Numbered from the stretch's first letter, positions 4,587-40,270 are shown. The stretch is 64,000 bases of DNA from an uncultured Bacilli bacterium (GCA_934162195.1 CAKPHO010000002.1:13689-77688); one strand, 5' to 3'. Notes: generated by a model from the letters alone, not told the origin. Numbers and translations: made by a program.

Positions 4587-5567
4587 ATGAACAAAAAGAC
4601 AGTAGCGTTAATAATATCTTTGCTAATTATACTTTTTCTAAGTATTTTCTTTATAAATACCAAAAAAGAATATAAAGCAAATATGTATTATATGGATACA
4701 TATATATATATAAAACTATATAGTAAAAAAGATGCTAGTGAGATACTAAAAAAAATAGATGATATATATAAAGAGTATCACTCTTTAACAGATAGATATA
4801 ATCATTATGAGGGAATTGTTAATATCTATGATATTTATCATAATACTTTAAGTGATAATGAATTAATAATAGATCCTAAACTATATGATATGTTAAAGTA
4901 TGCTAAAGAGTGGGAAGAAAAGTATCCCAAATTTAGTATTGAAATAGGTAGTACTATTGATGTATGGAAAAAATATAGAGATAGTGGTAAAGGTATTCCG
5001 TCAAAAGAAGAACTTGATAATACTAAAGAATATACAAAATTAATTTTGCTTGAAGATAATAAAATATTAAATAATCATCCTAATTTAGATCTAGGAGCTA
5101 TATCTAAAGGATATACTACAGAAGTAGTTGGTAAATATTTAGAGAGTATTGGCATTGACGAATATTTAATAAATGCTGGTGGTAATGTCAAAGTAGGAAG
5201 TAACTATAAAAAGAAAAATTATAGTATTGGTATCCAAAGTCCGATTAAAGGTGAAGATCTAATGTCAGTAATAAAAGGAAATAATATTAGTGTTGTAACC
5301 AGTGGCGGATATGAAAGAAATTATGAATATAATGGGATTACTTATCATCATATTATAGATCCAGATACTTTATATCCAAGTAATAATATGAAAAGTGTTA
5401 CAGTAGTTACAAAAGATAGTGCATTAGGTGATATACTTTCAACAACATTATTTTTAAGTAGTGTAGAAGAAGTTCAAGAAATAATTAAAAATTATGATTG
5501 TGAAGCCATATGGTATACTAATGACAATAAAATAATTAGAAGTGAGAATTTCAATAAGTATGAATAA
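4587..5567 (+). CDS. apbE: FAD:protein FMN transferase (ApbE family)
   Basis: ApbE motifs ISKGY, INAGGN, TSGGYER and HHIIDP, with an N-terminal membrane anchor. Confidence 0.85.
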   Translation: MNKKTVALIISLLIILFLSIFFINTKKEYKANMYYMDTYIYIKLYSKKDASEILKKIDDIYKEYHSLTDRYNHYEGIVNIYDIYHNTLSDNELIIDPKLYDMLKYAKEWEEKYPKFSIEIGSTIDVWKKYRDSGKGIPSKEELDNTKEYTKLILLEDNKILNNHPNLDLGAISKGYTTEVVGKYLESIGIDEYLINAGGNVKVGSNYKKKNYSIGIQSPIKGEDLMSVIKGNNISVVTSGGYERNYEYNGITYHHIIDPDTLYPSNNMKSVTVVTKDSALGDILSTTLFLSSVEEVQEIIKNYDCEAIWYTNDNKIIRSENFNKYE

Positions 5568-5928
5568 AAGTGATTGGAAATTAGTTATAAGTTTAGCACT
5601 TGTAATAATCGTTAGCTTTGCATTATTATTTTTAGTTAAAAATAATAATACCCCTAAAAAAGCACTAGTATATTATGAAAATGAATTAGTATTAGAAATA
5701 GATTTAAGTTTAAAAGGAGAACATGAATATCATGTTTCTGGATATAACGGAGATATATTAATTAAAACAAATGATAATAAAATTAAAGTTGAAGAGGAAA
5801 ATAGTCCTAATCATATATGTTCTAAACAAGGATATATAGATAGTAGTTATGAAGTACTTGTTTGTCTTCCTAATAAAGTAGTTATCAAAATAGAAGATAA
5901 TAAAGAAATAGATACGGTTGTGAAATGA
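5560..5928 (+). CDS. NusG domain II-containing membrane-anchored protein
   Basis: N-terminal TM followed by a beta-rich domain ending ICSKQGYI...VCLPNKVVI, typical of the NusG_II/DUF1312 family. ATG 5560 overlaps the apbE stop. Confidence 0.65.
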   Translation: MNKSDWKLVISLALVIIVSFALLFLVKNNNTPKKALVYYENELVLEIDLSLKGEHEYHVSGYNGDILIKTNDNKIKVEEENSPNHICSKQGYIDSSYEVLVCLPNKVVIKIEDNKEIDTVVK

Positions 5929-6425: not shown

Positions 6426-6485
6426 AGATACTTGCAAACTGGATGACAATGATGTATACTTAGTACAGTAAAGGACAGTGGTAGT

Positions 6486-6545
6486 ATGGTTAAAGTAGCT
6501 TTGAAAATAATAGCAAAAGCACCAACCTGGGGGGGGGTTATTTAA
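6486..6545 (+). CDS. candidate 19-codon leader peptide MVKVALKIIAKAPTWGGVI
   Basis: AAAGGA lies 10 nt upstream of the ATG. The paralogous copy at 31989-32048 has the same length and frame and the same MVK...PTWGGVI ends, although the middle differs at the nucleotide level. Confidence 0.45.
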   Translation: MVKVALKIIAKAPTWGGVI

Positions 6546-6575
6546 TCATACTATAGTATTAAATGATAAAGAAAA

Positions 6576-6624
6576 CACAAAGTTTCTAGACTTTTTAGTA
6601 GTCTAGATTTCTTTGTGCTTTTTT
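6576..6624 (+). terminator. intrinsic terminator between the uORF and the pilin gene
   Basis: CACAAAG-TTT-CTAGACT / AGTCTAG-ATT?TTT-CTTTGTG long hairpin with a 3x3 internal loop, followed by CTTTTTTG. It is conserved in copy 2. Confidence 0.65.
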
Positions 6625-6674
6625 GTTGTACCTTTACAAAAAAAGTAAATCTAAATAAAAGAAGGAGGAAGATT

Positions 6675-7574
6675 ATGAAATTAAAAAATAAATACGGATT
6701 TACACTTATTGAATTACTAGCGGTAATAGTAGTATTAGCAATAATCGCACTAATCGCAACACCAATAGTAATGAATACAATTAAGAATGCGAAGAAAGGA
6801 GCGGCTGAAAGAAGTGCGGATAGCTATGTTAAACAAGTAGAAGTAGCAGTAGCAGAAGAACGACTAAATAAAAATGAAGTACCAGAAGGCGAATATCAAA
6901 TAACAAGTGATGGAAATCTATGTAGAGATAAAAGTGCAAGTTGTTCAGATGAAGAAAAAATAAAAATTGAAATGAGCGGAACAAAACCAACATCAGGGAA
7001 AATAAAGATAACAAATGGAAGTGTTGATCAAACATCATCAAGTATGACAATAGGAGATTATACTGTTTCATATAATTCTACTAAAAAAACATATGAAGCA
7101 ACAGAGAAAGGGAATACAACTCCTGATACACAATCAACAACAGTAGTGTATAGATGGGCACCAGATACTATAGAAATAGGTGATACAATAAATCCAAGTG
7201 ATTATACAAAAGATGCAAGTACATTAGGAAAAAGTAATTATTTAAAACATGTATTAGATAAAGATGATAAAGTAATAGAATCATATGCATGTGTTATATT
7301 TAATAGTAAAGAATATTGTTTAAGAGGAGGGAACTCATCTTTCTATGGATATGCAGAAAATGAAGCAGATTATACAGGAAATGCGTTAATATTAAAACAA
7401 ATAAAAGATGCAAAAATAGAGGGAATAAGCTGCTACTTCAATGCTAGCAACTGTAACTGCCATGATGGCTCCGTTAGTTTGAATGTGAATTCGTATGGTG
7501 ACGTTAGTGCGGGCGATGTTGATGGCGGCTGCTCCGTCGGTGGTGATGGTAGTTCGTATTGCGTAAGCGCGTAG
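6675..7574 (+). CDS. modular type IV pilin-like protein A (class III signal peptide plus C-terminal Cys/Gly-rich domain)
   Basis: MKLKNKYG/FTLIELLAVIVVLAIIALIATP has the prepilin cleavage motif with Glu at +5. RBS GAAGGAGGA precedes ATG 6675, so the ORF-track start at 6615 is rejected. The first ~145 aa are paralogous to the pilin at 32257. Confidence 0.85.
   Translation: MKLKNKYGFTLIELLAVIVVLAIIALIATPIVMNTIKNAKKGAAERSADSYVKQVEVAVAEERLNKNEVPEGEYQITSDGNLCRDKSASCSDEEKIKIEMSGTKPTSGKIKITNGSVDQTSSSMTIGDYTVSYNSTKKTYEATEKGNTTPDTQSTTVVYRWAPDTIEIGDTINPSDYTKDASTLGKSNYLKHVLDKDDKVIESYACVIFNSKEYCLRGGNSSFYGYAENEADYTGNALILKQIKDAKIEGISCYFNASNCNCHDGSVSLNVNSYGDVSAGDVDGGCSVGGDGSSYCVSA
7428..7574 (+). other. 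adenine-avoiding, codon-phased segment at the pilin A C-terminus (candidate DGR variable region)
   Basis: Of 48 codons, 47 end in C, T or G (a single GTA). GC is ~50% by hand count against ~30% upstream. Locally rare codons are used (GCG, TCG, GTG), and the boundary at ~7428 is sharp. Confidence 0.45.
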
Positions 7575-21085: not shown

Positions 21086-21161
21086 GCTGAAATAGCTCAG
21101 CTGGTAGAGCAGCTCCCTCGTAAAGAGCAGGTCGGGGGTTCAAATCCCTTTTTCAGCACCA
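21086..21161 (+). tRNA. tRNA-Thr (anticodon CGT), CCA encoded
   Basis: Hand-folded cloverleaf: acceptor GCTGAAA/TTTCAGC, D arm GCTC/GAGC, anticodon loop CTCGTAA, T arm GGGGG-TTCAAAT-CCCTT. An extended -10 TGTTATAAT lies at ~21066. Confidence 0.8.
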
Positions 21162-21164
21162 TAT

Positions 21165-21238
21165 GCCGATATAGTTTAGTGGTAAAATAGGTCATTGGTA
21201 ATGATCAGCGGATAGTTCAATTCTATCTTTCGGCACCA
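21165..21238 (+). tRNA. tRNA-Thr (anticodon GGT), CCA encoded
   Basis: Acceptor GCCGATA/TTTCGGC (one U-U mismatch), anticodon stem GGTCA/TGATC with loop TTGGTAA, T arm GATAG-TTCAATT-CTATC. A hairpin terminator follows at ~21279-21316. Confidence 0.7.
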
Positions 21239-31914: not shown

Positions 31915-31988
31915 AAGCTTTATGGAAAAAACTACTTGTCAATATATCTAAAAAATGATACTATTGATATAGTAAAGGTAGTGATAGT

Positions 31989-32048
31989 ATGGTTAAAGAG
32001 ATAAATATGAAACTAGCTCAAAATCCAACCTGGGGGGGGGTTATTTAA
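31989..32048 (+). CDS. candidate 19-codon leader peptide MVKEINMKLAQNPTWGGVI
   Basis: Same length, frame, RBS spacing and MVK/PTWGGVI termini as 6486-6545. The G9 tract at 32032-32040 encodes W-G-G. Confidence 0.45.
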   Translation: MVKEINMKLAQNPTWGGVI

Positions 32049-32078
32049 TCATACTATAGTATTAAAAAATAAAGAAAA

Positions 32079-32125
32079 CACAAAGTTTCTAGACTTTTTG
32101 ATAGTCTAGATTTCTTTGTGTTTTT
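32079..32125 (+). terminator. intrinsic terminator between the uORF and the pilin gene
   Basis: Same hairpin arms as 6576-6617, followed by TTTTTAT. Confidence 0.6.
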
Positions 32126-32256
32126 ATGTGTACCTTTATAAGAAAGGGGTTGTTGTATAAATACATAAATATAGATAAAACATGTATTATGACTAGATGT
32201 TTATAAGAAATAAAACAAGGTATAATTAAAGTATAAAGTAAATAAGGAGGTATAGT

Positions 32257-33417
32257 ATGAAAAAGAAAGGATTTACTTTAATAGAATTACTAGCGGTAAT
32301 AGTAGTATTAGCAATAATAGCACTAATTGCAACACCAATAGTAATGAATACGATAAAAAGTGCAAAGAAAGGAGCTGCAGAAAGATCTGCGGATAGTTAT
32401 ATTGGAGCCGTAGAAACAGCAGTTGCAACAGCAAAATTAGATGGTAAAGATATACCAGATGGAACATACCAAATAGATAGTGATGGTAATTTAACAGGAG
32501 AAGGGTTACCAGATGGTAAATTAACAATAGATATGAAAGGAAATAAGCCAACAGGAGGAACAATAACAATAAAGAATGGACAAGTAACAAATGATTCAGA
32601 GATGACTATTGGAGATTATGATGTTAAATATAATGAAGATAACAATAAATATGAAGCAACCAAGTTAAAAACATATATAAATGGAGAGGTAGTATATTTT
32701 AATGTAACAACAGGAGAAAAATGTACATCATCAGATTATACAGAAACACAAAGTAATACAGGAACAAATAGGGGCTGTATGAAATTTTATGCCTTTAATG
32801 ATGATGGAGGAAATACAGTAAACTTAATATTGGATCACAATACAACAGCAACTGTAGCATGGAATTCAAGTAATAGTAATACAAATGGGCCAAAAGAAGT
32901 ATTAGAACAATTAAAAAAGGATACTGAATCATGGGAAGGGACAATAACACCGGCAAATTATACAATGGATCAAACAGGACAACCAAGTAATGCAAAATAT
33001 ACAATAGATTATAGTAGTTATAAAGCAAGATTAATAACAGCTAACGAAATAGCAAAAATTACAGGAAATACTTCTTGGAACGAGAAAACTGCAAGTAACA
33101 TATTCTATTTTGATACCAATACATCAACGATAAGTTCAACATGTGCTAAAGGAAATACAAGTGGATGTTCATATAGATGGTTATATGATAGATCAAGCAC
33201 CTATTGTACAACATATGGATGTTTAAATAATGCTGATTCTGCAATGACTGGAATTGGATATTGGACAGCATCTTCTCATGTCGGCTACGTTGGCACCATC
33301 TCTAACCGTGCTTGGTACGTGAACTGCCGCGCTCACGCGAACTACGGCGGCGTTTTCGATTCGAGCAGCCTTGGCGTTCGCCCAGTTATAGAAGTATTAA
33401 AATCTAAACTTTCATAA
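32257..33417 (+). CDS. modular type IV pilin-like protein B (pilin module plus DUF1566/C-type-lectin-like C-terminal domain)
   Basis: MKKKG/FTLIELLAV prepilin motif. The C-terminal domain carries ARLITANEIAKITG, GYWTASS and GVRPVIEV, as in Lcl/DUF1566-like folds. Confidence 0.85.
   Translation: MKKKGFTLIELLAVIVVLAIIALIATPIVMNTIKSAKKGAAERSADSYIGAVETAVATAKLDGKDIPDGTYQIDSDGNLTGEGLPDGKLTIDMKGNKPTGGTITIKNGQVTNDSEMTIGDYDVKYNEDNNKYEATKLKTYINGEVVYFNVTTGEKCTSSDYTETQSNTGTNRGCMKFYAFNDDGGNTVNLILDHNTTATVAWNSSNSNTNGPKEVLEQLKKDTESWEGTITPANYTMDQTGQPSNAKYTIDYSSYKARLITANEIAKITGNTSWNEKTASNIFYFDTNTSTISSTCAKGNTSGCSYRWLYDRSSTYCTTYGCLNNADSAMTGIGYWTASSHVGYVGTISNRAWYVNCRAHANYGGVFDSSSLGVRPVIEVLKSKLS
33280..33384 (+). 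other. adenine-avoiding, codon-phased segment near the pilin B C-terminus (candidate DGR variable region)
   Basis: Of 35 codons, 34 do not end in A. GC is ~61% by hand count. All three Arg codons are CGY although AGA dominates elsewhere in the window. AAC, TAC, CAC, AGC and GGC codons are enriched. Confidence 0.5.
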
Positions 33418-39316: not shown

Positions 39317-40270
39317 ATGAAACGAGGATTTACTTTAATAGAATTGATGGCTGTTATTGTTGTTCTAGGTATATTAGCAACAATATCAATAATATCTGTA
39401 GATAAGATAATTAAAGAAAATAAAGAAGAAACATATAAGGCACAAATTGCAACAATAGAAGATGCTGCCCGTACCTGGGGAGTAAAGCATATAAAAGAAC
39501 TTCCTGATAGTAATGGTGCTATATCTGTACCACTTCTTTATTTTAAAAATGAAGGAATAATACCACAAGATTTTAAAAATCCCAAAACAAATAAACCATT
39601 TAATGATGATTTATATGTAAATATTAGTTATGAAGGCGGTATATATAAATATGAAGTTGATGAAGCAAGTGGTCTTGGAACAAATGCTAATCCAACATTA
39701 TTAAAAAGAAGATATAGTTTATGTAAATTAGTAAATGGAACAAAGGAAACGGTAGGAGCAAAATATACATGTCATTTAGATAGTGATAGAACATTCTATG
39801 TATTAGAAACAAGTAAAGATAATGTATCACTAATTATGGATAGAAACTTCACAGATGCTATTGTACCTTCCAAATTAGCGTGGTGTATAGATGGTGGAAG
39901 TGATGGTTCAACATGTAAGAGTATAAATTCGAAAGAATATGGAACACCATTAAAACATATTCAAGATATATTTGGAACGGAGGTAGAAGTAAGTATTCCA
40001 AGTCCTAATCAAATAGCTGCTGCATCTGGAAAGACATTTTCTAGTGGAGACTTAATTTCTGGCTTATCATCTTGGTTATATGATTATTTAGATGGTACAA
40101 CTCACCCAGTATCTGGAGTATTAGGCTATTGGATATCAACAACTATAGATTCTAATTCTTCAAGTGCTTATATTACCATATACACTGGAAATATGTATGG
40201 AAGCAATGTTAACTCTAGCGATGGAGGCCTTCGCCCAGTTATTACAGTTGCAAAATCACAATTACAATAA
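39317..40270 (+). CDS. modular type IV pilin-like protein C (pilin module plus DUF1566/lectin-like C-terminal domain)
   Basis: MKRG/FTLIELMAV prepilin motif. The C-terminus has PSPNQIAAASG, GYWISTT and GGLRPVITV. Codon usage is AT-rich throughout, and the uORF leader is absent. Confidence 0.85.
   Translation: MKRGFTLIELMAVIVVLGILATISIISVDKIIKENKEETYKAQIATIEDAARTWGVKHIKELPDSNGAISVPLLYFKNEGIIPQDFKNPKTNKPFNDDLYVNISYEGGIYKYEVDEASGLGTNANPTLLKRRYSLCKLVNGTKETVGAKYTCHLDSDRTFYVLETSKDNVSLIMDRNFTDAIVPSKLAWCIDGGSDGSTCKSINSKEYGTPLKHIQDIFGTEVEVSIPSPNQIAAASGKTFSSGDLISGLSSWLYDYLDGTTHPVSGVLGYWISTTIDSNSSSAYITIYTGNMYGSNVNSSDGGLRPVITVAKSQLQ

Follow-up and report, generated by a model that had tools for sequence, protein, structure and literature searches.

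Poly-G tracts in leader open reading frames as candidate slipped-strand switches of transcription termination upstream of dispersed type IV pilin genes in uncultured gut Bacilli

We describe here a duplicated leader element that precedes two type IV pilin genes in a 64,000-nucleotide (nt) stretch of DNA from an uncultured Bacilli bacterium (GCA_934162195.1 CAKPHO010000002.1:13689-77688; hereafter, the window), together with its relatives in human-gut metagenomes. The window is part of the human-gut metagenome contig ENA ERZ27286918 k141_617983 and has a GC content of 26.5%. The two leader blocks (6464-6640 and 31968-32141; about 175 nt each) share one layout: a promoter, a 19-codon upstream open reading frame (uORF), a 13-bp helix (P1), and an intrinsic terminator, followed by the pilin gene. 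Positions 6464-6636 and 31968-32141 align at ~85% identity over 176-179 nt (blastn), and the copies are near 100% identical except in a stretch of ~27 nt, which bears out the duplication and the diverged stretch reported in the original prediction. No third or diverged leader copy was found when the window was searched for one, by blastn among other means. The features of copy A, upstream of pilin A, and of copy B, upstream of pilin B, are as follows.

6432-6460, + strand: promoter of copy A (TTGCAA, 17-nt spacer, TATACT; promoter scan)
6470-6475, + strand: Shine-Dalgarno-like AAAGGA of the copy A leader, single-stranded and 5′ of helix P1 (sequence)
6482-6553, + strand: P1 domain of copy A (−19.6 kcal/mol); its 13-bp helix, 6482-6494/6541-6553, surrounds the AUG and the UAA of the short frame
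6486-6545, + strand: leader open reading frame (ORF) of copy A in its short state, MVKVALKIIAKAPTWGGVI, 19 codons followed by UAA, in the frame that G9 sets
6529-6537, + strand: G9 tract of copy A, proposed slippage site, codons 15-18 of the leader ORF, which sets the frame
6538-6606, + strand: long-frame continuation of copy A, LFNHTIVLNDKENTKFLDFLVV, read if the tract is one G shorter; stop UAG at 6604-6606
6572-6624, + strand: intrinsic terminator of copy A, with outer stem 6576-6582/6612-6618 and U run 6619-6624
6585-6592/6600-6607, + strand: inner stem of the copy A terminator, 8 pairs of the minimum-free-energy (MFE) fold, with loop 6593-6599; the scan hairpin is 6585-6607
6675-7574, + strand: pilin A, 299 aa, N_methyl prepilin, with Shine-Dalgarno sequence AAGGAGG at 6662-6668
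31936-31964, + strand: promoter of copy B (TTGTCA, 17-nt spacer, TACTAT, with TG upstream; promoter scan)
31985-31997/32044-32056, + strand: P1 helix of copy B (fold)
31989-32048, + strand: leader ORF of copy B in its short state, MVKEINMKLAQNPTWGGVI, ending in a stop codon
32032-32040, + strand: G9 tract of copy B (sequence)
32075-32126, + strand: terminator of copy B (−23.8 kcal/mol); the long-frame stop would be UAG at 32107-32109
32257-33417, + strand: pilin B, 386 aa, with an extra ~117-nt spacer (type B) between terminator and gene

In both copies, a sigma-70-like promoter that was absent from the original prediction ends 6 nt 5′ of the first conserved base, and the predicted transcript start of copy A, near 6467, is that base. 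The 19-codon uORF follows its ribosome-binding site in both copies, as had been proposed. The two G9 tracts, also new here, are the only runs of G8 or longer in the window, where 0.04 are expected at its GC content, and both fall in the length range of slipped-strand loci (about 7 bases or more). With G9, the leader is read as the short 19-codon ORF. A tract shorter by one G opens a longer frame, likewise not described before, whose UAG (6604-6606) falls within the 3′ arm of the copy A terminator. This long frame crosses the linker between P1 and the terminator and the entire terminator 5′ arm, and it ends either at a UAG on the 3′ side of the inner stem or at a UGA/UAA in the loop. The third frame (G7 or G10) stops soon after the tract at CUA UAG/UAA. 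In related copies, G5, G8, and G11 tracts, or the lack of a tract, give a long ORF of 34-44 codons with the consensus ...(L)FNHTII(L)NNKENTKFLD(L/F)F(V/I)V before the stop, and the long frame is open in every related full-length copy. These related copies show the 19-codon uORF to be an out-of-frame, truncated state of a longer leader ORF.

The predicted 13-bp helix holding both the start and the stop codon is present in the MFE fold of both copies, with z-scores of −4.4 and −5.8, and none of the shuffled sequences folded equally well. Within the loop of the 72-nt P1 domain lie the variable codons, at about 6495-6521, together with the G tract. Across 24 related leaders, 96.8% of P1 cells are paired and the changes are one-sided only; the P1 interior is the least conserved part of the element, with codon-sized indels and a tract of 0 to 11 G. 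The terminator hairpin and T run before the pilin gene were recovered by folding and by a terminator scan, which gave 4 sites in copy A and 2 in copy B versus 0.1 expected; terminator energies range from −18 to −24 kcal/mol. The terminator stands between the leader ORF and the pilin gene with no promoter-like site between them, the arrangement expected of an attenuator, the caveat being a TATAAT in type-B spacers. In the covariation test on the 24 leaders, 97.6% of cells were paired, with one double change, and the statistics are uninformative because the family is too shallow. In three divergent leaders (L042b, L065, and L066), the inner stem of the terminator has changed by compensatory substitutions or an inserted pair.

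P1 and the terminator fold independently. When the 3′ arm was forbidden in constrained folding, no antiterminator emerged, the best partner of the terminator 5′ arm reaching −3.7 kcal/mol versus −18 to −21 kcal/mol for the terminator, and the mutually exclusive antiterminator hairpin that ribosome position selects in trp, his, and erm leaders has no counterpart here. A classical stalling or antiterminator mechanism thus lacks a structural basis, and since there is no alternative RNA structure, translation could act on termination only by direct occlusion. The original prediction of an attenuator leader controlling a subset of pilin genes is accordingly retained in part: a cis-acting, translated leader with a terminator does stand before one class of pilins, and the ribosome-arrest or sensory peptide is the part that is not supported, no alternative pairing of the 13-bp helix with the terminator having been found. 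Comparison with Rfam 15, including c-di-GMP-I and c-di-GMP-II (cyclic diguanylate riboswitches), gave no match at the gathering score and only chance-level, unrelated families at E values up to 10, in keeping with the earlier view that the element is no known riboswitch or leader family. The only Rfam matches in the window are two adjacent tRNA genes (21086-21158 and 21165-21235).

The two ends of the block are also complementary to each other. GUAAAGG at the transcript 5′ end (6468-6474), which overlaps the leader Shine-Dalgarno sequence, is complementary to CCUUUAC (6632-6638) just 3′ of the terminator; in copy B, the corresponding segments are 31972-31979 and 32131-32138. Most type-A and type-B spacers retain this complementarity, L008/L030 do not, and the two segments could pair only in read-through transcripts. 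As an element-closing pairing, or as terminal inverted repeats of a mobile element, it was rejected: it comprises only 7 bp, is lost in L008/L030-type spacers, and is explained in its downstream part by a local hairpin, UUUAC...GUAAA.

Relatives were collected in two ways. A first scan of a genome collection used a tract-centred pattern and returned 12 copies in one metagenome-assembled genome (MAG), that of the uncultured Tenericutes bacterium UMGS688, where many lie at the ends of contigs, and one further copy in a Hadza "uncultured Bacilli" MAG. Because such a pattern forces the presence of the tract, a metagenome scan was anchored instead on the terminator 5′ arm, which leaves it unbiased for the tract; it returned 28 loci in eight human-gut assemblies. 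In all, about 60 related loci from human-gut metagenomes have the same layout. About 7 nt 5′ of AGTAAAGG, each copy carries a TTGACA/TTGCAT-17-TATAAT promoter close to the consensus, and all full-length copies have the AAAGGA and AUG, that is, a promoter-proximal short ORF as in leader attenuators. A scan of viral contigs gave 0 matches and hence no sign of phage association. When distant relatives of the long ORF were sought exhaustively with a profile, no more than 12 representatives at 50% identity came back, which confines the family to a narrow lineage.

The distinct leaders collected independently of the tract comprise 19 in the short frame (G9), 8 in the long frame, and 1 in the third frame. 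Tract lengths of 5, 6, 8, 9, and 11 occur among the related loci, and the long frame is reached by many independent routes: through tract length, with G8 (L009 and L056), G11 (L057), or G5 (L041); through a T deletion combined with G6 (L039); through a 1-nt deletion a few codons upstream of a retained G9 (L044 and L066); through interrupted tracts (L031 and L048); and without any tract (L022/L024/L037, L042b, which is the second leader on L042, L060, L065, and L067). The assembly behind UMGS688, OLGM01, has 12 G9 copies, 11 in the short frame and 1 in the third (L005), plus the long-frame L039, and these tract states fit the pattern expected for a mostly-OFF repertoire. A profile search of public gene calls identified the long-ORF products as 135 clusters of 34-44-aa "hypothetical proteins," which gene callers start at the AAAGGA-preceded codon and which, in neighbor look-ups, precede an N_methyl pilin gene by about 70 nt. 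Among 120 clusters listed, the residues at the tract are WGGLF in 29 (inferred G8), WGLF in 18 (inferred G5), WGGGLF or WGGGIF in 13 (inferred G11), and WGVF or WGGVF in 13 (T-deletion forms), the remainder having another peptide there (interrupted or no tract).

Tract length varies between close relatives with identical flanks, as in contingency loci. Two loci downstream of ftsA-ftsZ, from samples ERZ27270443 and ERZ964368, show 100% blastn identity in the 2,500 nt that precede the leader ORF, and their leaders, read by eye, differ only in having G8 (L056) or G11 (L057). Three pairs of peptides (P0015/P0025, P0078/P0085, and P0062/P0065) differ only, or nearly only, by one Gly at the tract. 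The locus of copy A has G9 in two other samples and, in a third, a tract-less long-frame allele with a different pilin. The tract is hypermutable. The length changes alter the frame of the leader ORF as predicted, and an ON/OFF outcome of the kind seen at contingency loci would be the predicted consequence.

Around the tract, the frame is kept while the sequence drifts. Indels in the variable region of the leader ORF (+9 and −3 nt) are in frame and the uORF is kept in related copies, which upholds the earlier claim that it is translated. Among the copies recovered independently of the tract, all but two have only in-frame indels within the ORF; the frame is broken by an insertion of 13 nt in L005 and, in L044 and L066, by 1-nt deletions that compensate. 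In all 18 variants, a linker of 15 or 12 nt separates P1 from the terminator, its indels being only of 3 nt. An ORF that enters or traverses the hairpin, as in pyrBI and pyrE, exists in the long frame only, and it does so even in the divergent L042b, L065, and L066, where the stem sequence has changed and the leader ORF nevertheless still ends in the hairpin loop. A frame that is kept with its sequence free to vary is what would be expected if the ribosome must pass while the peptide itself is unimportant, and the variable stretch is accordingly best explained by translation, not by RNA structure.

Wherever the contig continues, the gene after the leader is a prepilin with the invariant N-terminus GFTLIELLAVIVVLAIIALIATPIVMNTIK, a highly diverse C-terminal part, and a total length of 290-653 aa. 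Pilins with other N-termini have no leader element; these include the third pilin of the window, at 39317, for which the original prediction had correctly noted the lack of a leader. From the terminator to the ATG of pilin A there is no promoter-like site, and the type-A spacing is only about 50 nt. The type-B spacer (32141-32256; also in L006, L011, and L039) is ~117 nt longer and conserved between genomes. It holds TATTAT/TATAAT hexamers without a good −35 and no promoter at the scan threshold, and it might be a weak internal promoter or a further regulatory layer.

The leader cassettes are dispersed among housekeeping genes, with pnp, ftsAZ, rpmA, tmk, ndk, suf, and rnj as neighbors, and do not lie in a pilus operon; the lineage carries mreCD and ftsAZ. 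The leader and the first ~130 nt of the pilin gene form a high-identity repeat (loci L002-L014 [UQVP01] and L016-L043) that breaks short-read assemblies, so many copies are found at contig ends. The downstream pilins were too diverse, with few orthologues, to be grouped into orthologues, and loci were compared by neighbor-gene look-ups instead. The extreme diversity of pilin bodies between samples suggests cassette-like recombination among paralogues.

Several loci show further changes. L016 (OGOZ01000300.1) is decayed: its promoter, start codon, and 5′ strand of P1 are gone, and its long frame meets a TAA in the loop of the terminator. L064 (ERZ27249942 k141_513107) is also decayed, its terminator being interrupted beside an rve-family transposase gene. 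In L041 (OGOZ01004325.1), a long-frame G5 locus, the Shine-Dalgarno sequence AAAGG has become AAAAT, which may be a second way to silence a cassette. A RhuM-family gene lies between tmk and the leader-pilin cassette in L049 and L050 (about 1921-2937) and not in L048 or L051. The adenine-avoiding tails ascribed to the two leader-bearing pilins are real: the last ~100 nt of pilins A and B (7475-7574 and 33257-33356) contain 16-18% A versus about 45% in the rest of the gene. These tails are G+C-rich and dissimilar to each other, and the third pilin has none. A NusG_II-domain protein (PF07009) is encoded at 5542-5928, two genes upstream of copy A; its proximity is probably coincidental but deserves mention because the proposed switch would depend on transcription-translation coupling.

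We propose that the leader is a slipped-strand contingency switch that acts through ribosome occlusion of the terminator, one assembly having at least 12-13 copies of it, each before a dispersed, hypervariable type IV pilin cassette, a reading that we regard as somewhat better than an even bet. Each block would be the 5′ leader of a stand-alone pilin cassette, its transcript starting at AGUAAAGG from a strong promoter. A ribosome would load at AAAGGA/AUG and translate the leader ORF, with the pilin gene, which would have no promoter of its own, lying beyond the terminator. In the long frame, the ribosome behind RNA polymerase would cover the 5′ arm and prevent the hairpin, and read-through would turn the pilin ON. 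In the G9 frame, the ribosome would be released at UAA 6543-6545, 28 nt before the terminator arm, so that the hairpin could form and the pilin would be OFF; the early stop in the third frame would also give OFF. Slipped-strand mispairing at the tract during replication would flip each of at least a dozen C-terminally hypervariable pilin genes independently, so that type IV pili would undergo phase and antigenic variation. From the long-frame stop at 6604 to the last base of the U run at 6624 is a distance of 20 nt, less than a ribosome's 3′ reach and the polymerase-enclosed RNA combined, so a coupled ribosome can keep contact through the termination point. P1 would hide the AUG as soon as its 3′ strand is transcribed, which might limit initiation to ribosomes that load cotranscriptionally, or P1 might impose a pause that brings both machines into step; such a role for P1, as a gate or pause tying ribosome loading to transcription, is speculation.

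Several observations weigh against this proposal. We infer read-through in the long frame from the course of the ORF over the terminator. Johnson et al. are said to have shown in 2020 that transcription and translation are uncoupled in Bacillus subtilis, and for occlusion to work, the present lineage would have to provide coupling or a pause; Firmicutes do possess attenuators that depend on the ribosome (vmlR, bmrCD, and lmo0919). The family is shallow, and much of its conservation may be concerted evolution among paralogues. The count of linker stops by frame (0 in the long frame, 43 and 25 in the other two) is weak as a statistic and was not used as one, because an in-frame stop can arise through few single-base paths and the copies share a common descent. 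Short-read assemblies may miscount homopolymers by one base. Among OFF lengths, G9 is by far the most frequent, and no G7, G10, or G12 was observed; this excess, which a pure random walk does not predict, could stem from mutation biased toward G9 or from slippage at G9 by the polymerase or the ribosome. Several contigs, judged by shared longest-contig sizes, hold two tract-less long-form leaders, so several pilins would be on at once if the long frame means ON. Finally, the TATAAT of type-B spacers might give transcription independent of the terminator.

That G9 dominates the short-frame alleles, with G7 and G10 absent, would be accounted for if G9 were itself the working state, polymerase slippage or +1 ribosomal frameshifting on GGG GGG G giving a tunable, low level of read-through, and G8, G5, and tract-less alleles being constitutive versions. 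The logic of an ORF over a terminator is identical in this recoding scheme, and the P-site tRNA-Gly, as read from the sequence, can re-pair perfectly one base downstream in the run. The GUU codon after the run is not obviously slow, however, and no stimulatory element was identified; moreover, assemblies show fixed lengths of 5, 6, 8, 9, and 11, and stretches of DNA that are otherwise the same differ at the tract alone, so change at the DNA level is real. We infer that switching takes place at that level and consider recoding unlikely. Slightly less probable again is that leader and pilin are not coupled at all, the block being an independent small gene (a terminated ~160-nt small RNA, a small protein, or both) that serves as a homology block for pilin gene conversion, with a neutrally varying tract and pilins transcribed by another route. 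Its own near-consensus promoter and terminator, the very high paralogue identity with mosaic variable parts (suggesting concerted evolution), the TATAAT in type-B spacers, and contig breaks that often fall inside the repeat would all suit such a gene. It sits poorly with type-A loci, where only about 50 nt with no promoter-like site separate the terminator from the pilin ATG, with non-G9 alleles that are far oftener in the long than in the third frame, with linker and variable-region indels that keep the frame, and with divergent members that preserve the overlap of ORF and terminator despite changed stem sequence.

The original prediction had instead favored a sensory or arrest function for the 19-aa peptide, its motif PTWGGVI stalling a ribosome that would remodel the 13-bp helix and so control the terminator. 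A short uORF is present, in frame in most copies, and its start and stop lie within P1, which would suit such a leader. PTWGGVI itself, on the other hand, turns out to be the G9 tract read in one frame: it varies with tract length, is absent from tract-less copies, and is unconserved in the copies collected independently of the tract. At its place, relatives have PTWGLF, PTWGGLF, PTWGGGLF, PTLVLF, PTWVIF, or LILGIY, so nothing matches the conserved stall motif of the TnaC, SecM, MifM, and Erm leaders. P1 and the terminator have no alternative pairing by which a stalled ribosome could act, and a ribosome at the UAA reaches only about 6556, 16 nt short of the terminator arm. We consider an arrest peptide very improbable. 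A riboswitch or protein-binding RNA, with P1 as the binding site of a ligand or factor and an incidental ORF, is if anything a shade less credible still. A stable 72-nt P1 domain (−19.6 kcal/mol) does precede the terminator, and Clostridioides difficile pilin genes are under a c-di-GMP-II riboswitch; against this, the search at E values up to 10 gave no relevant Rfam family, the P1 interior is where codon-sized indels and tracts of 0 to 11 G accumulate, and no expression platform links P1 to the terminator.

If the slipped-strand switch is real, two known principles are joined in an arrangement for which no description was found. A surface gene would be turned off without damage to its coding sequence, and the repertoire would be kept silent at the RNA level. 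The system would point to antigenic and phase variation of type IV pili in an abundant uncultured lineage of gut commensals and would imply strong selection by the host (immunoglobulin A) or by phages. Tract length in metagenomes would then serve as a proxy for which pilin is expressed, and the ~135 "hypothetical protein" clusters (34-44 aa) would be explained as ON-state leader ORFs. We see about an even chance that the leader represents a new class of contingency locus, in which homopolymer slippage in a leader ORF decides whether the pioneer ribosome escorts the polymerase past a terminator, so that each of at least a dozen pilin cassettes is heritably ON or OFF; such a class would imply functional transcription-translation coupling in this lineage. 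A full-text literature search found no description of a leader-ORF homopolymer tract gating a terminator, nor of this pilin system; a pilus gene cluster has been described in TANB77, a Clostridia clade, with no leader described (PMC11680825).

Among known systems, the nearest in logic are attenuators governed by translation. In the Escherichia coli pyrBI leader and pyrE attenuator, read-through needs translation up to or through the terminator, and in rph-1, a 1-bp frameshift stops translation early and lowers pyrE expression by uncoupling. G9 versus G8 follows the same logic as rph-1 and pyrE, here again with no antiterminator. The pilin leader differs in that pyrBI and pyrE depend on UTP (uridine triphosphate)-dependent pausing and rph-1 is an accident of one strain, whereas here a hypermutable tract is built in at least a dozen paralogous loci; there is no sequence homology between them. 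Firmicutes also have antibiotic-responsive uORF attenuators (the vmlR, bmrCD/bmrB, lmo0919, erm, and cat leaders), which resemble the present leader in having a short uORF before a terminator in a low-GC Gram-positive, with ribosome position controlling the downstream gene (here proposed). In those leaders, a stalled ribosome frees an alternative hairpin; the pilin leader has no alternative hairpin and no conserved stalling motif.

Other systems are nearer in what they control. The c-di-GMP-II riboswitch of C. difficile pilA1 (Rfam RF01786) likewise places terminator-based control in a Gram-positive type IV pilin leader, but the present element has no covariance-model match or conserved ligand core and is translated. 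Phase-variable terminators or leaders upstream of surface-protein genes are found in the cwpV and flgB switches of C. difficile, which share with our proposal a heritable ON/OFF decision made after initiation, in the 5′ leader, through an intrinsic terminator. Those switches work by site-specific inversion by a recombinase; here there are no inverted repeats or recombinase, and replication slippage would be read out by the ribosome. Homopolymer contingency loci include Neisseria pilC and opa, the Campylobacter poly-G genes, Treponema tpr, and the poly-G in the 5′ untranslated region of Moraxella uspA1. With these, the pilin leaders share a tract of 8-11 G that is polymorphic between otherwise identical strains, many paralogous surface genes, and, as proposed here, one productive frame in three. 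In the known loci, the tract lies in the structural gene or in a promoter or spacer; here it lies in a separate upstream ORF, the proposed output is termination, and the pilin ORF, unlike genes that carry the tract themselves, is never disrupted. The pilin leader belongs to no described family and would combine slipped-strand phase variation with ribosome-dependent attenuation.

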